64,000 bases of DNA from Planctomycetia bacterium (GTDB taxonomy: Bacteria; Planctomycetota; GCA-002687715). How positions within the stretch are numbered: the first letter of the stretch is position 1; each line of letters begins with the position of its first letter. Both the position numbers and the translations under genes were made by a program. Shown here in pieces: positions 8,382 to 64,000 of the stretch. Under the pieces are notes generated by a model. It saw nothing but the letters and a program-made list of their open reading frames with translations, did not search any database and was not told the DNA's origin. The stretch is taken from NCBI GenBank assembly GCA_005790545.1, contig SXUL01000122.1, forward strand, positions 7,249-71,248. Direction: 5' to 3'.

Positions 8382-9737
8382 GTGGTTGACGTAAGCAAGT
8401 ACATCGAACGCGCCGAAAGCGACCTCAAACGCCGCAACTGGGATGCTGCCATCACGCAGTTCGACCAGATTCTGAAAGTCAGCCCGGACTGCGCGGAGGC
8501 ACGGATTGGAGTCCGTCAGGCGAGCCTGAAGAAGCTCGAGAAGCGCTACCCCTCGGCTGTCGAACGGACCGTTCTCAATCTGCCGACAACGCTGCTCGCC
8601 GGCATAGCAGCGCTCGTACGGGCGAAAGCCTGGCACGCACAGCTCCTCGAGCAGGGCCTGCGGCGAGACCCGGCCAATGCCCGGCTCAACCACCGCTTGG
8701 GAGAGTTGTTGCACGACCTCGGGCACAGCCTCGGTGCAGCGGCCTCATTCCAACTTGCCACCGAGGCGGACAGCAACGCCATCGAATCCTGGAAGCGGCT
8801 CGGGGAGCTCCTCGCGGCGCGGAAGGATTTCGAAAAGGCCCTCGACTGCTTCGACCGCGCGCTGCGCATCAACCCGCGTGATCAGGAAGCGGGGCGCATG
8901 CAGAAGAATCTCGCTGCAGAAGGCGCCATCCGGCACGGAGGATTCGAGCAGGCGACCAGCTCGCGCGACCTCGCCAAGAGCGAGCGGCAGCTCAAGGAGT
9001 CGGAGCGCGTGCAGAAGATCGTGCGCACCGCCGACGACATCAACGCCGCCCTTGAGGATCTCGCAGCGGATCTCGCGGCCCAGCCCGGCGACACCAAGCT
9101 TCTCCTCCGGCGCGTCGTGCTCCTGCAGCAAAAACAGGATTTCGCCGCAGCCCTCACGGCGGTGGATGCGCTCCTTGCGGTGGAACCCTCGCACACGGAA
9201 GCCCTCGACCGCAGGGGCGAACTCCGTCAGCGCCAACTCGAACGCGAGCTCAAGTTGGCGGAGGAAGACGTACGTGCCGGCGAGGATGGCGCGGATGATC
9301 GCGTCCGACGCATGAAGCGCGAACTGCGCGCCTTCAGACTGGATGAAGCGAAGCGCCGCGTGGCAGCACAGCCGACCGACATGGCCGCGCGCTTCCGTCT
9401 CGGCCGCGCCCTCCTCGAGGAAGGGGCTCTCGATGAGGCCATCGAGCAGTTCCAGCAGGCTGTCCGTGACCCGAAGCTGAAAGTGGGAGCCTTGCAGATG
9501 CTCGGCCGCGCCTTCGCGGGCAAGAACATCCTCGACCTCGCCATCAAGCAGCATTCAGAAGCTGTCGGCATGATTGCCGGCATGACGGATCTCAAGAAGG
9601 AGATCCTTTACGAACTGGCAGACCTGCAACAACGCGCGGGCGACCGTGCGGCTGCGGCGGGGACCTTCAAGCAGATCTACGAGGCCGACATCAGCTACCG
9701 TGACGTCGGCCAACGCATCGCGGCCCTTGCCTCCTGA
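8382..9737 (+). CDS. tetratricopeptide-repeat protein
   Basis: Multiple TPR-like helical repeats (AxxxFxxALxxxP). Probable GTG start. Confidence 0.55.
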   Translation: MVDVSKYIERAESDLKRRNWDAAITQFDQILKVSPDCAEARIGVRQASLKKLEKRYPSAVERTVLNLPTTLLAGIAALVRAKAWHAQLLEQGLRRDPANARLNHRLGELLHDLGHSLGAAASFQLATEADSNAIESWKRLGELLAARKDFEKALDCFDRALRINPRDQEAGRMQKNLAAEGAIRHGGFEQATSSRDLAKSERQLKESERVQKIVRTADDINAALEDLAADLAAQPGDTKLLLRRVVLLQQKQDFAAALTAVDALLAVEPSHTEALDRRGELRQRQLERELKLAEEDVRAGEDGADDRVRRMKRELRAFRLDEAKRRVAAQPTDMAARFRLGRALLEEGALDEAIEQFQQAVRDPKLKVGALQMLGRAFAGKNILDLAIKQHSEAVGMIAGMTDLKKEILYELADLQQRAGDRAAAAGTFKQIYEADISYRDVGQRIAALAS

Positions 9738-51572: not shown

Positions 51573-51721
51573 ACTGAGTGCAGTGTACGGCGGTCTTGTC
51601 GCCAATCACGCGCCCTGACGCAACATTCCCCCTTGCTCACCGTTGTAGGCTTCGATCCCGAACCTTGCCGAGGTCCGTTCCATCGCTCCCGCGGCCCACA
51701 AGCCGCCAGAGGTTCCCTCCC

Positions 51722-53446
51722 ATGCTCAAGCAGTTCTCCACGCTTCTCGCCATTCTCGCCCTCGCTGCTTTCGTGCACGGCCAGACGCCAGTTCTCACAG
51801 GGCTCACGCCGCCCTCCATGCTCGCTGGCGCCGGTGCCACAACGCTCACGCTGCACGGCACCGGTTTCATGGCCATGAGCACGGTGCGCATCGGAGCGCG
51901 CTCGCTCACTCCGTCGAGTCTGACATCCACACAAATCCAGGTCCTTGTGCCAGCGACGGATCTTCTCAACGCGCGAGTGCACCTCGTGCGCGTGGAGAGC
52001 AACGGCGGTGCGGTCAGCGCGGCAGTGCCCTTGCCGGTCCTCGGCGAATCCCTCGGCTCTGGTTCGTGGCATTCCCTCGCCATCGACTGCAATTCTGCGC
52101 TGTACACGTGGGGTTCCAACTTCAGCGGACAACTCGGGCTCGGGACCAACATCAATGTCGGCGTGCCCACGCGCGTCACAGGCTTCAGTGCACTCGCCGC
52201 TGAAGCTGGTCTTGGTCACACTCTCGTCGTTGCAACAGACACAACTCTTCGCAGCACCGGCCTCAACGCTTCAGGGCAACTTGGCCTCGGCAATCTCACC
52301 AGTCGCACCAGCTTCGCTGCAGTGCCAGTGGTGACGGGCGCCATTGGTGTCGCCACCGGCGCTGCGCACAGCCTCGCGCTCCTCGTTGACGGCACCGTGC
52401 TCGCATGCGGGGAGAACGCCAACGGCCAACTCGGTCTCGGCGACACCACGGATCGCACCAGCTTCACGCTCATCCCGGGACTCACGGAGGTGGTGGCCAT
52501 TGCCGCAGGCGAGAATCACTCGTTGGCGCTGCTGCGCACGGGCGCCGTGCGTTCGTGGGGCCTGAACAACGTGGGCCAACTCGGACTCGGTGACCTGGCC
52601 TCGCGTTCGTCGCCCACCGCCACCACGACGCTCACCAACGTGGTCGCGCTTGCAGCCGGTGGCTGGCACTCGCTAGCCCTCAAGGCCGACGGCAGCGTCG
52701 CCGCGTGGGGCGCGAATGTGAGCGGGCAACTCGGCCTTGCGGACACCACGGACCGCAGTTCACCAACGGCCCTCGCCCTCACGAATGTCAGCGCCATTGG
52801 CGCTGGCGAATACCACTCCCTCGTGCTTCAAGCGGGCGCCGTGTGGACGACCGGCGACAACACCAGTGGGCAACTCGCCCTCGGCGACTACACCAACCGC
52901 AGCACGTTCACCCTCGCGAGCGCGCCGGGCGCACGTATGCCTGTCGGCGCCAGCGCCCACACAGCCATGATCGGCCCCTTCGGCATTCCGTGGTCGGCTG
53001 GCAACAACACCTACGGACAACTGGGCGACGGCACCTTCCTCGTGAATCCGCTGCTTGTGCCAGCACTGTGGCTGGATCTCACCCCTGTCGTCCTCGGACT
53101 CTCGGCCACTCTCCCCAGCACCTTCACCGCCGCGGTGAACGGCGCCCTCGAACACGCGGGCCACACCTACCTCAACGCCTTCAGTGCTGACCCCTTGAAC
53201 GCCAGCGCGCCCTACCAAGGGCCTTGGTTCGGGTTGTTCGTCACCCATGACGATCTCCTGTTCCAGATCGCCATTGGAGCACCGCCCTTCGTCGGCAACC
53301 TCGACGCTCTGGGCAACACCAGCGCGTCGATCACGCTGCCTCTCGCGAGCCTCGCTGGTCTGCAGCTCTTCGCGAACTCCACCACCTGGGACCTCAACCT
53401 CGGCATTTACACCGGCTATAGCGCCATCGCGGCCTACACCTTCTGA
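51722..53446 (+). CDS. secreted RCC1-repeat (beta-propeller) protein with N-terminal IPT/TIG-like domain
   Basis: Signal peptide MLKQFSTLLAILALAAFVHGQ and seven repeats of the RCC1 signature (HSLAL...G.V..WG.N..GQLGLGD). Confidence 0.75.
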   Translation: MLKQFSTLLAILALAAFVHGQTPVLTGLTPPSMLAGAGATTLTLHGTGFMAMSTVRIGARSLTPSSLTSTQIQVLVPATDLLNARVHLVRVESNGGAVSAAVPLPVLGESLGSGSWHSLAIDCNSALYTWGSNFSGQLGLGTNINVGVPTRVTGFSALAAEAGLGHTLVVATDTTLRSTGLNASGQLGLGNLTSRTSFAAVPVVTGAIGVATGAAHSLALLVDGTVLACGENANGQLGLGDTTDRTSFTLIPGLTEVVAIAAGENHSLALLRTGAVRSWGLNNVGQLGLGDLASRSSPTATTTLTNVVALAAGGWHSLALKADGSVAAWGANVSGQLGLADTTDRSSPTALALTNVSAIGAGEYHSLVLQAGAVWTTGDNTSGQLALGDYTNRSTFTLASAPGARMPVGASAHTAMIGPFGIPWSAGNNTYGQLGDGTFLVNPLLVPALWLDLTPVVLGLSATLPSTFTAAVNGALEHAGHTYLNAFSADPLNASAPYQGPWFGLFVTHDDLLFQIAIGAPPFVGNLDALGNTSASITLPLASLAGLQLFANSTTWDLNLGIYTGYSAIAAYTF

Positions 53447-53887: not shown

Positions 53888-54676
53888 TCAACGCGCTGTC
53901 GCCTTGATAATCAGTCCTTGATTCGGCTTGTGCTCGAAGAGGAAGAGAACGGCCACGCGGTCCAGCGCTCCGAGCAGCACGGGTGATTCGAAGCGCGCGC
54001 TGCGCGCGGTGCATTCGCTCTCGATCCCCGAGTGCGGCAGCAGCGAGAACTCATCCAGCACCGTCGCGGAAAGCAGGGTGTTCGCCTCGCCACCGAAGTC
54101 GAGATCGAACGCGAGCGACTGAAAGACATCGGCGGGGTTCACGTTCGCGCTTTCCACCCAGAAGATGACACCGCTGTCGCCCTGCATCGGCAACCTCGTC
54201 ACGGCGACGGGCGCATTGCGCGTGAACACAATGCCCGGAGCGATGTCCACCTCGGGTGACCAGGCGGGCGAAGTGGAGAGCACAATGGACAAGCGGACAT
54301 TGGCGCTGCTGACAGCGCCGCCGGTGTGCACCTCGATGTTGATCACATCGCCCGGCTGCAATGCGTCGATAGAGACCCTCTGTTCACCGACAAGGCCCGC
54401 GCAGGTGTGGTCGGACTTCCCCACCTTGATCTTCGTGAGGCGCGGCGGGGTTCCAGAATCCCCCGGAATGCAGCCGAGGTGAATGGTGAGGTCGGTTGCC
54501 ACCATGCCGGTGTCGTTGGCGATGAAGCCGGTGGCCGCAGGCCCGGCACACACCGGAAGCGCGGAAGACGGCATGTCGAGAGCGGCTGCGCCTCCGGTGA
54601 CGTGGATCGTGCCCAGGATCGTGGGCTGGGCGGCAAGAAAAACCGTGGACAACGCGAGAGCAAGGACGATGCGCAT
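53888..54676 (-). CDS. hypothetical secreted protein
   Basis: Signal peptide MRIVLALALSTVFLAAQP and a beta-rich, Cys-containing body. No family recognised. Confidence 0.5.
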   Translation of the reverse strand: MRIVLALALSTVFLAAQPTILGTIHVTGGAAALDMPSSALPVCAGPAATGFIANDTGMVATDLTIHLGCIPGDSGTPPRLTKIKVGKSDHTCAGLVGEQRVSIDALQPGDVINIEVHTGGAVSSANVRLSIVLSTSPAWSPEVDIAPGIVFTRNAPVAVTRLPMQGDSGVIFWVESANVNPADVFQSLAFDLDFGGEANTLLSATVLDEFSLLPHSGIESECTARSARFESPVLLGALDRVAVLFLFEHKPNQGLIIKATAR

Positions 54677-56438: not shown

Positions 56439-56495
56439 CGGGGAATTCCTCCGGACGGGCGACGATAGCCCGCGGCCCGTCCGGCGGAAGGAGCG

Positions 56496-57995
56496 TCACT
56501 TGGCTGGTGCTGGCGCAGCCGAACCATCCGGGAGCGGCGCCGGGTTCTTCTGTTCCGGAAGTTCGCCCCAGATGCCCCACGGCTTCCAGTTCTTCGGCGG
56601 TTGACGCCGGTCGGTCTGGATGTGCGCGTAGAGCGGCGTCACGCTTTCGTCGTAGGCCACACGCCCATTCACGAAAGCCCTCTCCACGAAGGTGCGGTAA
56701 TCCAGCGGTTCGCGATCAAGGATGAGGATGTCCGCATCCTTCCCCTTGTCGAGGCTGCCGATGCGGTCCGCAACGCGGAGCATCTCCGCAGGTGTCAGCG
56801 TGATGGAACGCAGGGCCTCTTCATTGGAAACTCCACCGCGCACGGCGAAGGCCGCTTCAAGATTCAGCCCGAGAAGATCGCGTCCGCCGAACAGCGAAGT
56901 GGTGATGCCCGTGTTGAGGGTCATGGTGCTCCACGGAACACCGGTCTTCTGCATGATGGACGCCGACTCGATGCGCCAGCCATGCGGTGCATCGACGTTG
57001 GGGTCCGTGTAGGGGCGCGTGGCGGATCCGCCCTTGCCGCGCGGAAGCAGGATCACGCCTGCTGCGGAGCGCGAGACATCCGCCGCCATGGCCCAGGCCT
57101 CCTGCGCCGTGTGCAGGATGACGGGCACACCGAATTCCTGTGCGAGCTCGAGGCCGAACTCCATGTCACGGCGATTGTCGGCGTAATAGAAGACCGGCAC
57201 GTCACCATTCATCGCATCTGCGAGAGCGCTGACGTTGTCGTCCGTCTTCGGCTCGGTGAGATCCTTCTTCCCCGCCGCGAGATCCTTCAGCCAGGTCTTC
57301 ACGGCAGCGCGATGCTTCTTCGCCTTTTCGAACACGTCGCGCTGTTCGAGGCGTGCGCTGCCACCCTGCCCGCCCGGTGCGTTCATGTAGAAGGCTGCGG
57401 GTTCCCGCAGCGTGAAGCCCTCGATGGTGCCCGCCGTGAGTTTCCCGACCACTCCCCCAACCTGGCCCGTATGCGAACCGATGAATGCGCTACCCACACT
57501 GCCGAAGAGCCCGCCGAACATGCTGTCCGCCATACCGCCGCTCTCATGCGCCGTGGTGACACCGTTCGCGAGAGCGAGCTGCATGAAGTCAGCAAAGGGA
57601 TCGAAGCGGTGCTCCGCCTTCTCCTTGTTCGTGGAGTTGCGGAGCCCCAATGCGCCCTTGGCCGCGATGGCCACGAAACCGGGCGCCACATGCTTGCCTC
57701 GGCCATCGATGATTTCCGCGCCTTCGGGAATCGTCACATCGGTTCCCACAGCGTGAATGAGCTTGTCCTTGATGAGCAGCGTGCCGCCAGTGATGACGCC
57801 ATGAGACACGGTGTGCAACGTGGCGTCCTTGATGGCGACCCAGCGCGGGCCCGCCTTCTTCTCCGCCACGGGTTGCTCGGCGGCCGGTCTGGTGGCCGCA
57901 GCGGCGGGCGCCTTCGCGCCTTCCTTCGGAGCCTCACCCTGTGCCGAGAGCATGGATGCCACAACGAGGCCGCTCATGAAGATCCGGGCGCGCAT
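56496..57995 (-). CDS. amidohydrolase-superfamily protein, signal peptide, degenerate metal site
   Basis: Signal peptide MRARIFMSGLVVASMLSAQG. N-terminal beta-sandwich (IIDGRGKHVAPGFVAI) lacks the HxH dyad. C-terminal motif GSLDKGKDADILILD...FVNGRVAY. Confidence 0.7.
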   Translation of the reverse strand: MRARIFMSGLVVASMLSAQGEAPKEGAKAPAAAATRPAAEQPVAEKKAGPRWVAIKDATLHTVSHGVITGGTLLIKDKLIHAVGTDVTIPEGAEIIDGRGKHVAPGFVAIAAKGALGLRNSTNKEKAEHRFDPFADFMQLALANGVTTAHESGGMADSMFGGLFGSVGSAFIGSHTGQVGGVVGKLTAGTIEGFTLREPAAFYMNAPGGQGGSARLEQRDVFEKAKKHRAAVKTWLKDLAAGKKDLTEPKTDDNVSALADAMNGDVPVFYYADNRRDMEFGLELAQEFGVPVILHTAQEAWAMAADVSRSAAGVILLPRGKGGSATRPYTDPNVDAPHGWRIESASIMQKTGVPWSTMTLNTGITTSLFGGRDLLGLNLEAAFAVRGGVSNEEALRSITLTPAEMLRVADRIGSLDKGKDADILILDREPLDYRTFVERAFVNGRVAYDESVTPLYAHIQTDRRQPPKNWKPWGIWGELPEQKNPAPLPDGSAAPAPAK

Positions 57996-59425
57996 CAGCG
58001 GTCCTCCTTCGTTGCATCGTGAATGACTGCGCCATCCACCACTACCGCGATGAGTTTCGTGGTCGGAGCCAGAGGCTCGCCGTCATAGAGGACGAAATCC
58101 GCATCGCGGCCTTGTTCGAGGGAACCGGTGCGCTGACCGAGTCCGAGCACTTCCGCCGGCGTGAGTGTGGCGGCACGCAGCGCGTCGTCGGGATGCAGCC
58201 CGTGCCGCACGAGTTGCAGCAGTTCACCGCGGAAGCGCTCGAGACCTTCCAATTCGCGGGCTTCCGGCATGAAGGCCACAGGGACGCCCGCATCAAGCAG
58301 GATCGCCGCCGTGGAACGCAAGGTCGCGATGAAGGGGACGTTGCTCATCTGCGGAGGCATGAGCACTGTGACCCCGGCTTTCTTCAGGCCAGCGACCACA
58401 CGCCATGCATCCGGGCCGCCACGAAATGCCGCACCGGTAAACGCCACCGCGGGGCGGAAGCTCGCATCCGCCGCGAGCAAGGCCTCGGTGTGCAGAAACG
58501 CAGCGGCACCCGAGATGAAAAGCACACCCGGGAGCTTCGCTTCGAGAGCGTCCACGAGCGGCTGCAATTTCGGGTCCTTCTGTGGTTCCTTCGGCGGCTC
58601 CGGCTTTTTCTCCTCGGCCTTCTTCTCACCTTCGGGTTTCTTTTCCTCGGGCTTTGCTTCGCCTTCCTTCGGCGCGTCCGCAGGCTTCGCTTCGGCTGGC
58701 TTGGCTTCCGCCGACTTCGGCTCTGCTGGTTTCGCCTCGGCGGGCTTGCCGCCCTTCTTGAATGCTTCCAGGTCGGTGATGTACTTGCGCGCCTTCTCGA
58801 TGGACTTCAGGAAGAAGTCCCGTGTGGCCGTGCCGGGCTCGAAGGCCATGGCAAGCGCAGCCTTGTCATCGCGGATCAGGCTCCCGATTTCGGGCAGGCC
58901 CGCCACAGGCTTCACCGGCTTCGCAATCGTCACCATGCCAGAAACGCCGCCGCCGGTCGGCATGAGCGCGACCGTCGTGAAACCCGAACGCGCGAACTTC
59001 TTCACGTCCGCTTCCTGCGGGTCGAGCTTGCCACGCACGGTTTCATCACCCTTGGCGGCGGAGCCGCTCAGATCGAAGCGCTCTCCGGCACCGAAGAACA
59101 ATGCAGCGGGGTGCACGAAGCCTGGTGCAACGGTGAGCGAGCGGCGCTCCTCGTGGGTTGCATGCGTCGGCACTTCGAGCACGCCTTCCTTCCCCACGGC
59201 GGTGATCTTCCCGTTGCTCACGAGAATCACGGCGGCATCGATGACGCCGCCGGTGATCGTGTGAGCGCGCTTGACGTGCCACGCGACCACCGGTGCCTTC
59301 GCCGCGGCATCGTCGCCAGCAGCCGGCTCGGGTGTCTCTTGCGCGAATACAAGAGTCGCGAGAATGAGCGTGAGCGCGAGCGCGCGCAACGAATCAGAAA
59401 CGCTGTCCATCACGGGCCGCGTCAT
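57995..59425 (-). CDS. amidohydrolase-superfamily protein, signal peptide, degenerate metal site, KPAE-rich linker
   Basis: VAPGFVHPAALF in place of HxH. C-terminal motif GSLEQGRDADFVLYD. Internal low-complexity KPAEAKPAEPKSAEAKPAEAKPA segment. Confidence 0.65.
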   Translation of the reverse strand: MTRPVMDSVSDSLRALALTLILATLVFAQETPEPAAGDDAAAKAPVVAWHVKRAHTITGGVIDAAVILVSNGKITAVGKEGVLEVPTHATHEERRSLTVAPGFVHPAALFFGAGERFDLSGSAAKGDETVRGKLDPQEADVKKFARSGFTTVALMPTGGGVSGMVTIAKPVKPVAGLPEIGSLIRDDKAALAMAFEPGTATRDFFLKSIEKARKYITDLEAFKKGGKPAEAKPAEPKSAEAKPAEAKPADAPKEGEAKPEEKKPEGEKKAEEKKPEPPKEPQKDPKLQPLVDALEAKLPGVLFISGAAAFLHTEALLAADASFRPAVAFTGAAFRGGPDAWRVVAGLKKAGVTVLMPPQMSNVPFIATLRSTAAILLDAGVPVAFMPEARELEGLERFRGELLQLVRHGLHPDDALRAATLTPAEVLGLGQRTGSLEQGRDADFVLYDGEPLAPTTKLIAVVVDGAVIHDATKEDR

Positions 59426-60638
59426 AGGCCACCTTTCCGTTCACGAAGGTCATGAGCACGCGCGAGCGCGGGTCAAAGGGATCGCCGGTCCAGATGGCCA
59501 GATCTGCATCCTTGCCGGTTTCAAGGGAACCGAGCCGCTTCTCCAGACAGAGAAAGCGCGCTGCGTTGATGGTGAGGCCCTTCAGAGCCACACCCTCGGG
59601 CAGTCCATGCCGGATGGCCATGGCCGCCTGGTAGGGAAGCTCTTCCTGCGGCACCACAGGTGAGTCGGTGTTCACACCGATGTGGTCGTCACTGACGCCC
59701 ATCCAGTACCAGCTCGCCGCGAGGCCGAAGAAGCGCCCGTCATTCGGGCTGAGCCAGAAGATGCGCGGTCCGCACGCAGCGCTCACGTTGTTGTCGATGG
59801 CGAGCTGCGCATTGATGAAGCCGTCGAATTCGCCGTGGTCGATGACCACCTTCAGCTTCAGGTCGCGGGCGAGCATGCGCAGGGTGCTCTGCACCACCTG
59901 GAAAATCTGTGTGTGCACGGCCACCGGGTATTCGCCGCGATAGAGACCACGGAGGTACTCGTAGCGCGGGTCCTTCGCGGGCTGGGTCTTCGTCTTCCCC
60001 TCCTCGAAGGCACACCAGGCCTCGTGGTAGGCGCGGCCTTCCACAAGCACGTTCCTGATCATCCAGTTCATGCCGATGCGCCCGGCACCGAGGTCGCCAT
60101 TGCCGCGTTCCGGGTTGCCTGCCTGCGCAATCTTGAGGGCTCCCGGGAAGCGCACGAGCACTTCCTTCGGCGTCTCACCGAAGGTCTTCACAATGGCGCC
60201 GAAGCCGCCCATGTTCGTGCCCGAACCGGGAATGGACAGCACCGTGGTGACGCCACCGGCGCGTGCGATGCGCATTTCCGGGGAATCCAGCTCGATGTTG
60301 TCGAGCACGCGGAGTTCCGGATTCACCTGGTACACGATGTCGTGCAGGTCGCTGCACGCCGTGTGATTGTGCAACTCGATGAAGCCCGGGATGACACGCT
60401 GCCCGGTGGTGTCGACAACGCGGTAGCCCGCAGGCACGGGCAGTTCACCCAGCGCTCCGACCTGCTCGATCTTGCCGTCGCGCATCAACACGACGCCCCG
60501 CTCGATGGACGGACCAGCCATGGTGTACACGCGCCCGCCGGTGAGCGCGAAGCACCCTGGCTCCAGAGGCGCCACCGGCCCTTCCTGAGCAGCCAGCACG
60601 AGCGTCAGAACGAGAATCACGCCGAGGGTGCGCATCAC
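59394..60638 (-). CDS. amidohydrolase (metal-dependent), signal peptide, intact HxH motif
   Basis: Signal peptide MMRTLGVILVLTLVLAAQ. Catalytic motif VIPGFIELHNH. C-terminal motif GSLETGKDADLAIWTGDPFD...FVNGKVAY. Confidence 0.75.
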   Translation of the reverse strand: MMRTLGVILVLTLVLAAQEGPVAPLEPGCFALTGGRVYTMAGPSIERGVVLMRDGKIEQVGALGELPVPAGYRVVDTTGQRVIPGFIELHNHTACSDLHDIVYQVNPELRVLDNIELDSPEMRIARAGGVTTVLSIPGSGTNMGGFGAIVKTFGETPKEVLVRFPGALKIAQAGNPERGNGDLGAGRIGMNWMIRNVLVEGRAYHEAWCAFEEGKTKTQPAKDPRYEYLRGLYRGEYPVAVHTQIFQVVQSTLRMLARDLKLKVVIDHGEFDGFINAQLAIDNNVSAACGPRIFWLSPNDGRFFGLAASWYWMGVSDDHIGVNTDSPVVPQEELPYQAAMAIRHGLPEGVALKGLTINAARFLCLEKRLGSLETGKDADLAIWTGDPFDPRSRVLMTFVNGKVAYDAARDGQRF

Positions 60639-63469
60639 TCTTTCTCCTTCAGAGGCACGAGCCTGCCCTTCGAGACCACATGCAGAATGCGCGTGGCCGG
60701 CGCGAAGGGTTCGCCATCGAGAATCACGAGATCGCCGTCGCGTCCCATCTGGATGCCGCCGATCTTCTGTTGGTGATTGAGGACCAGCGCCGGCCAGCGC
60801 GTGAGCATGCGCAGCGCGTCGTCGCTGTTCAGGCCTTGTTGCACCGCATGACTCGCGATGTCCATGAGACGCGCACTGTCCCGGTGCGCCAGCAGCACAG
60901 GCACTCCTGCACGCGCCGCCTCAAGGACGGGCGACCAATCACGCCCCTCGCGCTTCAAGACCGGCGCGGACACGGACGCATAGGCCACACCGAGTTCCTT
61001 CATCAGCGGCAGAAGTTCCGGAAGCAGGCGTGATTCCATGAAGGCCACGCGCACGTCGAATTCGTCGCGCAGCATGCTGAGCAACGCCCGCGCGAGGCGC
61101 TCGTTGTCCGCACTGAGGAAGATGGGCGCTTCGCCATCGAGGACGCCCTTCCAGGCTTCCATGGCTTCGTTCTTCGCCGGAGCCTTGGGGCGCCCCTTTG
61201 GCTCGTCGCTCTTCGCGGTCTCCGCAGGCTTCGCGGCCTCACCATTCTTGGCGGAGCCGTTCTTGGCTGAGCCATCCTTCGCCGCCTCGGCGCTCTTCCC
61301 GTCTGCGGGCTTCACTTCGGCCGGCTTCGGCGCCTCGCGTTCGCGGCGCAGCAGGAATGTTCCAGCAACCTTGCCCTCGAGGGTGGCAGTGCCTGACCAT
61401 TCGTGACGTGTGAGCGCTCCGCGGGCGACGAAGCTCTTCCCTGCCACGGTGCCTTCCGCCACGAGCTCGCCGCCATCGAAGCGTGCCGTCCCCTCGAAGG
61501 GATCGCGACCCGCTGCTTCCACCTTCACTTTGAAACCGTCCTTGTCCGGAGTGAAGCGCGCGATGCAACGGATGTGTCCCTCGGCAACGACCTCCGGCGC
61601 CCACACATCGCCGCGCCACGCATCACCGAGGATGGTGCGGGCTTCGGGCGCCTTCGAGCGTGTCACCTGATGCGACACCTCTGCTGCCTTGGGCGGGTTC
61701 TTCTCGTCGAATGCCGCGAGGTCCTTCTTCCACTTCTCGAAGCTCTCGAAGTACTTCTTCGCGCCGTCGAGGATCTTTCTGAGGCCGTCGACTTCCTGTT
61801 CGCTGTGGCGACGACCGGTGAAATCTGAAAACACGCCCGCGATCTTCGCACTCACCGCCTCGGAGGCTGCGGAGCCGCACTTGACCAATGAGAGCGCGCC
61901 CGAGACATTGCGGCCACCACCGGGCATCAGCACCAATGAGGTCACCCCGCCCGCGGCGGCTGATTCCACGTCGTCCTGCTCCGCATCGAAGAAGCTGGAC
62001 GGTGGTTGTTCAAGGCCGAGTGCTCCAAGACTTGCGTCCGTCACCGCCTCACCATCCGCCTCGCGAAGATTGCGCACGCCGGTCTGCGCACCGGCGTTGA
62101 TGAAACCGGGCACCACCACCGCTTCGGGAAGATCGAGAATGCGCGCGCCGGGCGGGATGGTGATGCCTCGCCCGACACCGGCGATCTTCCCCTTCACGAT
62201 GAGCACGGTGGCGTCTTCAAGCACGGTGCCATCGCCGGGCAGCACACGCCCAGCGCGCACGGCCACGGGAGAATCCGAGCCCGCGGAGCGATCCCGCATC
62301 ACGCGACCATGAGCGACCACCACGATGGGCCGCGTGCCCGCAGCCAGTGGATCGCGGTCGAACAGCAGGAGATCAGCACTGGCGCCTTCGCGCACAAGGC
62401 CGGCCTCCGCGCCGATGATCTCCGCAGCACCGCGCGTGATGGCACGCAGCACACGCTCCTTCGCAAAGCCGGCGTTCTCGTGACGACCAGCGAGCCAGAG
62501 CAGCTCGCCCTCGGCATTCAGCGGAGCGATGGCGACGCGCACACCTGCGGCCGCGAGGCGCGCTGCGGCATCCGCCGCAGGGTCCATTTCACCAAATCGC
62601 GATTTCCCGGCGTCAACGGAGGGCTGCTCCAGAATGAGCGCTGCACCGGCGCTCCCCAGTTCCTTCGCGAGCTGCCAAGCCTCGGCGCCGCCCTCAATCA
62701 CCGGCGCGTGCCCTGCCTCGCGTGCGAGTTCGATGGCCAGCGTGATTTCCTCCACGCTGTCCGCGCGAAACCGCAGCCCGCGTTTCTTCGCGAGGACATC
62801 CGCGAACACCGCCACGGCGCCGCGCTCGTCCTCGTCAAGTTCCGCCGCCTCCGCGGCCGCCGCATTGCGCGCGAATTCAAGCAGCTCACGGAAGGCCATG
62901 GCCGCACCGCCGCGCGTACGCGGCAACTGGCGCTTGATGCCAGGGCGATCCTCCGGACCCGGTGGCACTGCCGGGACATAGATGTGCGGCGGATTGAATG
63001 CCGCCGGCGAAAGGACGACATGCACCGCCGGAAGAGCGGGCTGCACTCCGCCGCCAGCGTCCGCAGCAGCGAGCGAAATCACGCCCCCGCTGCCGGGGAC
63101 GAAGCGGCCACGGCCGGGTGATGCCCAGAACGTGGTGATGCCGGCGTCGAGCAGTGCTTGAGGCGCATAGGCATCGTGCGCATCCGTCGCGAGCACCTGC
63201 GGCCAGACGCTCCGTTCCGAGGGGCCGACCCGCACAGCATCCGCGAGCACGAGGCCGGGAATGAGAAACGCACCGTCGACCGCGAACACCTTCGCACCCG
63301 CCGCTTGCAATGTCGCATCGCCGATGGTGGCGACCTTGCCTTCGCGCACGAGGACCGAGCGTCCCGCGCTCAGGGTTTCTCCGTCGAAGAGCGTCACGTT
63401 GCGGAAGAGCAGCGGCTCCTGCGCGAGAACAACGGCGAGGAGGGCCGGAACAAGAAGCAGGCAGCGCAT
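60635..63469 (-). CDS. tandem double amidohydrolase-like protein (two degenerate domains joined by Ala/Lys-rich linker), signal peptide
   Basis: Signal peptide MRCLLLVPALLAVVLAQ. Two amidohydrolase-like halves (FLIPGLVLADAV and VVVPGFINAGAQ in place of HxH) are separated by AEVKPADGKSAEAAKDGSAKNGSAKNGEAAKPAETAK. Confidence 0.65.
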   Translation of the reverse strand: MRCLLLVPALLAVVLAQEPLLFRNVTLFDGETLSAGRSVLVREGKVATIGDATLQAAGAKVFAVDGAFLIPGLVLADAVRVGPSERSVWPQVLATDAHDAYAPQALLDAGITTFWASPGRGRFVPGSGGVISLAAADAGGGVQPALPAVHVVLSPAAFNPPHIYVPAVPPGPEDRPGIKRQLPRTRGGAAMAFRELLEFARNAAAAEAAELDEDERGAVAVFADVLAKKRGLRFRADSVEEITLAIELAREAGHAPVIEGGAEAWQLAKELGSAGAALILEQPSVDAGKSRFGEMDPAADAAARLAAAGVRVAIAPLNAEGELLWLAGRHENAGFAKERVLRAITRGAAEIIGAEAGLVREGASADLLLFDRDPLAAGTRPIVVVAHGRVMRDRSAGSDSPVAVRAGRVLPGDGTVLEDATVLIVKGKIAGVGRGITIPPGARILDLPEAVVVPGFINAGAQTGVRNLREADGEAVTDASLGALGLEQPPSSFFDAEQDDVESAAAGGVTSLVLMPGGGRNVSGALSLVKCGSAASEAVSAKIAGVFSDFTGRRHSEQEVDGLRKILDGAKKYFESFEKWKKDLAAFDEKNPPKAAEVSHQVTRSKAPEARTILGDAWRGDVWAPEVVAEGHIRCIARFTPDKDGFKVKVEAAGRDPFEGTARFDGGELVAEGTVAGKSFVARGALTRHEWSGTATLEGKVAGTFLLRREREAPKPAEVKPADGKSAEAAKDGSAKNGSAKNGEAAKPAETAKSDEPKGRPKAPAKNEAMEAWKGVLDGEAPIFLSADNERLARALLSMLRDEFDVRVAFMESRLLPELLPLMKELGVAYASVSAPVLKREGRDWSPVLEAARAGVPVLLAHRDSARLMDIASHAVQQGLNSDDALRMLTRWPALVLNHQQKIGGIQMGRDGDLVILDGEPFAPATRILHVVSKGRLVPLKEKE

Positions 63470-64000
63470 CAGCGGCCCGCTCCGAAGATCTCGGAGAGGC
63501 GCGGATCCTTCGCGCGCTCGTAGACAACGCGCCCGCCGATGATGCCCGTCTCCACCCAGGCGAGGCCCGAAAGCGGATCGTCGGTGAGCACGAGCACGTC
63601 ACCATCGCGGCCTTTGTCGAGAGCACCTTTCCGCGCACCAAGACCGATGGCCTCGGCCGCGTTGGTCGTCACGGCGGCCAGCGCTTCTTCGCGCGAGAGC
63701 CCGCAGCGCACGAGACTCGCGGCCTGGTACCACATGTAACGGCGCGCCAGCGAGCCGGGCGCGGTGGTCACGGCAAAGCGCACGCCGGCTTCCTTCAGAA
63801 GTTGCGGCAGGTTGCGCACCACTTCCTTGCCTGTTTCGGGATCGTCCTCGCGCGGCTGGAACTCGCCTGCGAGAATCACCGGCAGCTTCCGGCCCTTCAG
63901 ACGCGCAAACGCGCGCCAGGTGTCGTTGCCGAGGACCAGCCGCACGTCGAGCTTGTAGTCCGCTTCGAGGCGCAGCGCCTGCTCCACGTCCGCAGCGGTG
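63469..64000 (-). CDS. amidohydrolase-superfamily protein, 5' end beyond the window
   Basis: C-terminal amidohydrolase motifs (GALDKGRDGDVLVLTDDPL...IIGGRVVYE). The reading frame is open to the window edge. Confidence 0.6.
   Translation of the reverse strand, partial: TAADVEQALRLEADYKLDVRLVLGNDTWRAFARLKGRKLPVILAGEFQPREDDPETGKEVVRNLPQLLKEAGVRFAVTTAPGSLARRYMWYQAASLVRCGLSREEALAAVTTNAAEAIGLGARKGALDKGRDGDVLVLTDDPLSGLAWVETGIIGGRVVYERAKDPRLSEIFGAGR

Follow-up and report, generated by a model that had tools for sequence, protein, structure and literature searches.

A conserved array of predicted exported amidohydrolase paralogs in Planctomycetota with one apparently catalytic subunit and eight putative pseudo-enzyme modules

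The 64,000-nucleotide (nt) stretch of contig SXUL01000122.1 from an uncultured Planctomycetia bacterium (assembly GCA_005790545.1, positions 7,249 to 71,248), referred to here as the window, carries on its minus strand five co-directional open reading frames (ORFs), called A to E, which lie head to tail from position 56496 to the window edge (Table 1). They encode amidohydrolase-like proteins, only one of which appears to have retained a catalytic site. An exact-protein look-up of the D product led to contig SYGL01000042.1 (assembly GCA_005799575.1; locus L001, other related loci being numbered likewise), which matches the window except at 13 of 10,158 nt (99.87% identity over the shared stretch) and holds the complete operon in the order H-G-F-E-D-C-B-A. 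The window genes are the distal part of this operon, the remaining three and a half genes being located past the window edge. With D counted as a fused pair, the eight genes encode nine modules of the type found in PDB entry 3OOQ. A first-pass annotation, made from the letters of the window, had described five chained genes; the five ORFs stand at the positions it gave, but the full array has eight genes and nine modules. The upstream extension that it proposed recovered H, G, F, and the rest of E, as well as a divergent gene for an extracytoplasmic function (ECF) sigma factor.

The E/D, D/C (with C read from its ATG), and B/A junctions each consist of TGATG, a 1-nt stop/start overlap, within TGATGCGC, and the C/B junction is the only one in the window with a longer overlap, of 32 nt. 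The range of 4 to 32 nt reported in the first-pass annotation is to be corrected accordingly. On L001, the spacings from H to A are -1, +3, -4, -1, -1, -32, and -1 nt, where the value of -4 for F/E becomes +2 if E is taken to start at 8784, as annotated. Inside the window part of the operon, promoter- and terminator-like sites showed no excess over the shuffled expectation. Together with the shared direction of the genes and their overlapping or abutting codons, this is consistent with the earlier proposal of one translationally coupled operon. A hairpin between A and glyA lacks a T tract and is followed immediately by the glyA ribosome-binding site; it may mark the end of the operon or stabilize the mRNA.

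The products of A to E match the Pfam profiles Amidohydro_1 (PF01979) and Amidohydro_3 (PF07969) with 38 to 56 bits (gathering cut-offs, 25 and 29.7), mainly over the C-terminal 60 to 100 residues. F and G also score above the gathering cut-off; H stays below it, at 20.6 bits, yet BLAST and hidden Markov model (HMM) comparison show it to be homologous to the other products. BLAST alignments between the window paralogs are full-length, at about 25 to 30% identity: A and B each match C or one another from end to end, and the part of E inside the window matches the C-terminal regions of the other proteins. The C-terminal motif GSL[DE]xG[KR]DAD, which had been assigned to all five proteins, occurs in its strict form in A, B, and C only; D reads GLVREGASAD and GGIQMGRDGD, and E reads GALDKGRDGD. 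We take this motif to be part of the composite β-sandwich, not of the active site. E is the best-conserved pseudo-subunit and has the signature HTSEGMDRxNE.

Subtype I binuclear amidohydrolases bind their metals through an HxH motif on strand 1, a carbamylated Lys on strand 4, His residues on strands 5 and 6, and an Asp on strand 8. Within the window, C alone has the HxH motif (PGFIELHNH) and the complete ligand set (H89, H91, K168, H241, H267, and D324), and its full-length alignment with 3OOQ (E = 5e-44) brings all ligand motifs into register. The first-pass annotation had singled out C by its HxH motif and had read the degenerate motifs of the other members correctly (Table 1); the four further ligands of C strengthen that assignment. 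For a broader survey, the modules of about 19 arrays were aligned to an HMM built from C-type proteins. All six ligands are invariant in C-type proteins (40/40), and each non-C module of the window's array keeps at most two of the six, with the alignment of strands 5 to 8 being uncertain in the most divergent modules. Loss of HxH alone does not prove inactivity, the N-acetylglucosamine-6-phosphate deacetylase NagA of Escherichia coli being a known exception; therefore, the pseudo-groups were searched for alternative conserved His/Asp/Glu clusters. No such cluster (e.g., of the NagA type) was found in the pseudo-groups, none of which has more than one His conserved across orthologues. The members were thus not placed in unrelated families with intact sites of their own: the Pfam matches are to amidohydrolases and no alternative cluster emerged. 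Judged from these residues, C is the sole predicted catalytically competent subunit, and the other eight modules are predicted pseudo-enzymes.

Matches to curated NCBIfam families (Xaa-Pro dipeptidase, HutI, PhnM, and NagA) were all below threshold, and no substrate was assigned from them. The best score against NF051886 (Caulobacter-type Xaa-Pro dipeptidase) was 60 bits (cut-off, 500 bits), and that against TIGR01224 (imidazolonepropionase HutI) was 46 bits (cut-off, 298 bits).

D had been taken for an internal tandem duplication. Its two halves show no mutual similarity by BLAST at E ≤ 1, and Dn and Dc belong to separate lineages; by sequence, D is best described as a conserved fusion of two divergent paralog lineages, not as a recent duplication. 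An AlphaFold2 (AF2) model of D, based on 14 aligned sequences, has a mean predicted local distance difference test score (pLDDT) of 76.8 and a predicted template modeling score (pTM) of 0.48. It contains two amidohydrolase-like halves, a 34-residue helix at residues 557 to 590, and, in Dc, a β-insert followed by a disordered segment rich in K/P/A/E. The best PDB match of this model is 3OOQ, with a template modeling (TM) score of 0.79 normalized to the target, followed by other amidohydrolases. As modeled, D has the (β/α)8 barrel and composite β-sandwich fold; for C, the assignment of this fold rests on the full-length alignment with 3OOQ. The Dc insert modeled by itself reached a pLDDT of 80 and a pTM of 0.71; it has no match in Pfam and weakly resembles fatty acid-binding protein (FABP)/calycin barrels (TM score about 0.5, E about 2e-3).

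Each of the eight products has an M-R/K start and a hydrophobic 10-mer (mean Kyte-Doolittle value 2.1 to 3.3) followed by an A|Q cleavage-like site, in agreement with the signal peptides predicted earlier. A crude hydrophobicity test for signal peptides was passed by 129 of 165 array proteins. Because these N-terminal features are present and 3OOQ lacks the corresponding extension, export of the array products via the Sec pathway is likely. The signal peptide of G contains the string LLAC, which is not conserved in the L002 orthologue, and G was not classed as a lipoprotein. Among the orthologues, 6 of 17 B and 7 of 19 Dc proteins have linkers rich in K/P/A/E, as do a few A and H proteins; such linkers were never seen in C, E, F, G, or Dn. 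F has a His-rich loop, DDGHAHQGHSHGAG, at about residues 288 to 305, which is also present in its orthologues from L007, L008, and L009 (the window's clade) and might serve in metal binding or delivery.

The gene order H-G-F-E-D-C-B-A, with C in one to four copies, was found in 24 related loci that were read, down to about 25 to 35% identity. This array also surrounds D homologues of 52% identity (L002) and of 32% identity (L003), the latter with different flanking genes. An eleven-gene version (L006) contains four copies of the catalytic subunit C; in a best-hit analysis, the L001 genes H-G-F-E-D-C-B-A correspond to genes 1-2-3-4-5-(6,7,8,9)-10-11 of this locus. When an alignment of E orthologues was used to scan one genome per species, 17 loci were obtained; all 17 records bear the title Planctomycetota or the name of an order or genus of this phylum, and every complete locus had the above order, with D double. 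A profile search with E gave at least 220 orthologue clusters from metagenomes at E ≤ 1e-40, and all organism-named ones are from Planctomycetes/Planctomycetota. The neighborhood conservation that the first-pass annotation proposed to check holds for Planctomycetota; no organism-named array came from Verrucomicrobia or Gemmatimonadetes, which it had also listed. Every paralog has orthologues that form a separate lineage and keep a constant place in the array, A orthologues being last. Since the array recurs in many genomes, its occurrence cannot be put down to chance.

The ratio of nonsynonymous to synonymous substitution rates (dN/dS) was computed against L024, a relative at about 90% protein identity. 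The values were 0.096 for H, 0.099 for G, 0.056 for F, 0.047 for E, 0.070 for D, 0.018 for C, 0.059 for B, and 0.039 for A, compared with 0.032 for glyA and 0.116 for a flanking methyltransferase gene. C thus has the lowest value of the array, and the pseudo-subunit genes, all at 0.04 to 0.10, are under strong purifying selection. These values, the fixed lineages, and the ligands invariant in C all strongly support the suggestion, made from the window, of one active enzyme with exported pseudo-enzyme partners, as opposed to simple paralog redundancy.

An exhaustive phmmer search with A as the query gave 8,655 matches at E ≤ 1e-3, 238 of them at E ≤ 1e-30. Many are proteins with two modules (about 820 to 940 amino acids [aa]) or three modules (about 1,250 to 1,550 aa), and those longer than 700 aa mostly have exactly one HxH module. 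By group HMMs, P0029 (882 aa) is a B-A fusion, and P0011 (1343 aa) is an H-G-F fusion in array order, with E and then D next on its contig. Three-module proteins with predicted export and an inactive-active-inactive layout are common, and exactly one HxH was present in each of the 119 examined (119/119). They occur as stand-alone genes in the cultured Planctomycetes Telmatocola sphagniphila (L025) and Tundrisphaera sp. TA3 (L026), which this single HxH makes a tractable model. The HMM scores of the three-module proteins (Gemmatales/Isosphaerales) were ambiguous, and no orthology to specific array subunits is claimed. A minimal two-gene form on a 4.4-Mb metagenome contig (L004) encodes a 935-aa protein with an inactive N-terminal and an active C-terminal module, and a 437-aa inactive protein. 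Because of these fusions, three-module proteins, and the two-gene form, we conclude that one live module tied covalently or genetically to dead paralogs is a stable design of this branch, of which the window holds the most expanded form. The two-gene form adjoins a gene for an M20 peptidase.

The closest solved relative, 3OOQ, is an amidohydrolase from Thermotoga maritima MSB8, deposited as a structural-genomics entry of unknown function with 10 chains, and was classed as a dihedral assembly in a benchmark paper. C resembles it over its full length, with the HxH, K, H, H, and D residues aligned; 3OOQ is also the best match of the D model and shares with the array a family-specific helix and loop after the K strand. 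It differs in being a single module with no N-terminal segment where C has its signal peptide, and in being a homo-oligomer without pseudo-enzyme partners. The next-best sequence and structure matches are exported members of COG1228 (MEROPS M38 type), namely the Arg/Lys carboxypeptidase Cc2672 (3MTW), the prolidases Sgx9260b/c (3FEQ, 3N2C, and 3MKV), the ochratoxin amidohydrolase ADH3 (8IHQ), and aminoacylases. They share the fold and a binuclear-metal amide chemistry on peptides or N-acyl-amino acids, and several are secreted or periplasmic; however, only their termini align by sequence, and they are homo-oligomers of active subunits without arrays of dead paralogs.

Amidohydrolase folds that have lost their metal ligands and act as structural or regulatory parts of oligomers are known from CRMP/DPYSL proteins, which form hetero-tetramers of inactive dihydropyrimidinase paralogs, and from the inactive dihydroorotase-like PyrC' of Pseudomonas aspartate transcarbamoylase. 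DPYSL structures were among the weak matches in the PDB comparison that gave 3OOQ. Unlike the array, an operon of eight genes with a single predicted active partner, these proteins are cytosolic, belong to other branches of the superfamily, and involve one or a few paralogs. In the β-subunits of the 20S proteasome, in ClpP1/ClpP2, and in CCT, each duplicated subunit has its set place, and catalysis is retained by only some of them; ClpP heteromers and the way in which heteromeric paralogs evolve are treated in published papers. The logic by which a homo-oligomer becomes a hetero-oligomer would be the same here, but the folds are unrelated and the assembly of the array is hypothetical. Full-text literature searches found no description of the array, of tandem amidohydrolase modules, of pseudoenzymes in connection with Planctomycetes, or of a function for 3OOQ, which agrees with the statement in the first-pass annotation that no characterized system has this layout. 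Neither the fold, nor the chemistry, nor the idea of pseudo-enzymes as partners is new; the novelty is a conserved array, predicted to be exported, of eight dead modules and one live module. To our knowledge, pseudo-enzymes and paralog heteromers are well known in eukaryotes and clear many-subunit cases in bacteria are rare; we know of none in the amidohydrolase superfamily or for an exported enzyme.

The explanation that we favor, with a little more confidence than doubt, is that the array encodes an exported hetero-oligomeric amidohydrolase in which C would be the sole catalytic subunit and which would descend from a homo-oligomeric ancestor. The nine modules would assemble outside the cytoplasm. 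C would hydrolyze an amide (C–N) bond, with a small molecule (e.g., a peptide or N-acyl-amino acid) as its substrate, because its nearest characterized relatives (COG1228 carboxypeptidases, prolidases, and aminoacylases) do so. The dead paralogs would fill the remaining structural positions and provide substrate-binding or gating surfaces, as well as flexible K/P/A/E tethers, the β-barrel insert, and possibly metal handling by the His-rich loop of F. The divergent ECF sigma/anti-sigma pair probably controls expression. We infer the heteromeric complex from the coupled genes, the conserved order, the fusions of adjacent subunits, and the dihedral homo-oligomer seen in 3OOQ, whose ten chains and dihedral class make a large homo-oligomer a plausible ancestral state. 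A more specific version, in which one defined exported hetero-oligomer with a fixed position for each paralog arose from a 3OOQ-like dihedral homo-oligomer, is possible but tentative; single modules, two- and three-module fusions, the two-gene pair, and arrays of 8 to 11 genes would then be intermediates surviving in Planctomycetota. An array filling the ten positions of a 3OOQ-like decamer was not adopted, given module counts of 9 to 12. These counts, which vary because C is present in one to four copies, do not fit one fixed stoichiometry and weigh against a hetero-oligomer, as do several other points. Some arrays retain HxH in G or Dc, which suggests that active sites were lost stepwise. 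The pTM of D, only 0.48, is too low to fix even how Dn packs against Dc. Adjacent genes with 1-nt overlaps fuse easily, and as "Rosetta stone" evidence their fusions therefore count for less than those of unlinked genes. Finally, neither the NCBIfam matches, which are far below their cut-offs, nor the neighboring genes, which reflect synteny only, point to a substrate.

Several of these points could also be read as signs that the paralogs are co-regulated but independent exported proteins that form no stable complex, with C a free periplasmic hydrolase and the pseudo-enzymes acting separately, for example as proteins that bind or scavenge related substrates or as non-canonical enzymes. We regard this main rival as unlikely, although it would account for the low pTM of the fused D, for the differences between arrays in how many C copies and active modules they have, and for the conserved polar residues particular to each pseudo-group (e.g., 18 in E and 13 in F) as possible linings of binding pockets; moreover, the characterized exported COG1228 enzymes are homo-oligomeric, as the many identical chains of 3FEQ and 8IHQ and general background indicate. 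It does not readily explain why gene order and every paralog are strictly kept across deep divergence, why the active module is repeatedly fused to inactive ones, or why translational coupling is so tight, and no pseudo-group offers a candidate alternative catalytic center. A mainly structural role, with the array forming an envelope scaffold or lattice, the linkers acting as spacers or tethers, and the active site being secondary (e.g., for maturation or remodeling), seems improbable to us. Eight of nine modules are non-catalytic by prediction, B, Dc, A, and H carry long low-complexity K/P/A/E segments, and the apparent ECF sigma/anti-sigma control is typical of envelope functions; yet C is the most constrained gene (dN/dS 0.018), with an invariant active site, and its amplification to two to four copies in many arrays points to catalysis as the core function, and Pfam scans found no anchoring motif, lipobox, or cell-wall-binding domain. 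Loss of catalytic residues would also be expected of redundant, decaying duplicates of one amidohydrolase gene, with the pseudo-enzymes on their way to loss, but all genes are intact in every genome examined, each paralog lineage is older than the divergence of the arrays, and the dN/dS values of 0.04 to 0.10 rule decay out; we consider this idea refuted.

If the hetero-oligomer that we favor exists, the array and its simpler relatives would provide a natural series for studying the transition from homomer to obligate heteromer and would point to an extracytoplasmic amide-hydrolyzing activity in widespread uncultured freshwater and soil bacteria. Fixed positions for the paralogs would make it a bacterial extracytoplasmic model of obligate heteromers dominated by dead subunits, reached by a route like that of the eukaryotic proteasome and CCT, and possibly a new gated or processive amide-hydrolyzing machine. 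The simpler forms in cultured Planctomycetes (Telmatocola sphagniphila and Tundrisphaera) make the idea testable at the bench. Present genome annotations label all of these genes as "amidohydrolase family protein" and thereby overstate the hydrolytic capacity at this locus about nine-fold.

Table 1. Features of the amidohydrolase-like array, its surroundings, and related loci
Feature	Sequence	Position	Strand	Description
Gene A	window	56496..57995	-	499 aa; last gene of the operon; putative pseudo-amidohydrolase, predicted export; VAIAAKG replaces HxH
Segment in A rich in K/A/P/E	window		-	After the predicted signal peptide
Gene B	window	57995..59425	-	476 aa; putative pseudo-amidohydrolase, predicted export; VHPAALF replaces HxH
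K/P/A/E-rich low-complexity linker in B	window	58556..58753	-	About residues 225-290; inserted after the family-specific helix
Gene C	window	59394..60638	-	414 aa from GTG, or 413 aa from ATG at 60635
Gene D, whole	window	60635..63469	-	944 aa; two modules, Dn and Dc
Module Dn of D, with predicted signal peptide	window	62276..63469	-	About residues 1-398; VLADAV replaces HxH
Module Dc of D	window	60635..62275	-	About residues 399-944; INAGAQ replaces HxH
β-Insert in Dc	window	61340..61621	-	Residues 617-710; eight-stranded antiparallel in the AF2 model
K/P/A/E-rich segment in Dc	window	61205..61336	-	Residues 712-755; predicted disordered from pLDDT <50 and composition
Gene E, partial	window	63469..64000	-	C-terminal 176 residues of a 405-aa protein; runs past the window edge
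Stem-loop between A and glyA	window	56446..56489	-	In a 57-nt gap; -38 kcal/mol, z-score -2.6; GC-rich
262-aa protein gene	window	53888..54676	-	Signal-peptide-like start
622-aa protein gene	window	51578..53446	+	IPT/TIG domain, then RCC1 repeats
Complete operon	L001			Protein lengths (aa): H 421, G 360, F 466, E 405, D 944, C 413, B 476, A 499
Gene F	L001	7381..8781		With His-rich loop
ECF sigma gene and 266-aa protein gene	L001	3532..4844	-	Divergent from the operon
Radical SAM gene cluster	L001	1..3566		Upstream of the sigma gene
Two-gene form	L004	10001..14118		935 aa and 437 aa
Three-module gene, Telmatocola sphagniphila	L025	8001..12080		Stand-alone
Three-module gene, Tundrisphaera sp. 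TA3	L026	8001..12482		Stand-alone
H-G-F fusion P0011	L027	4759..8790		1343 aa

Upstream of the operon on L001, and divergent from it, lie the ECF sigma gene and a gene whose 266-aa product contains HxxxCxxC and a hydrophobic segment and is probably a zinc-finger anti-sigma factor. An ECF sigma homologue was found upstream of the array at seven loci from two sub-clades, and it is the sole neighbor that recurs across two sub-clades. In the clade with multiple C copies, genes for a DeoC aldolase and RpiB recur as neighbors; in the window's clade, the gene after the array is glyA. None of these three genes was used to assign a substrate, as they reflect synteny among relatives and not function.

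Farther upstream of the sigma gene, L001 carries genes for a B12-binding radical S-adenosylmethionine (SAM) protein, a radical SAM/SPASM protein, another radical SAM protein, a hexapeptide-repeat transferase, and a methyltransferase, and this cluster is syntenic in L002, L007, L009, and L024. On the other side of the array, the 622-aa protein in the window is unrelated to the array, and the 262-aa protein has no match in Pfam. The gene for the latter is kept downstream of glyA in L002, L007, and L008, at 40 to 46% identity.

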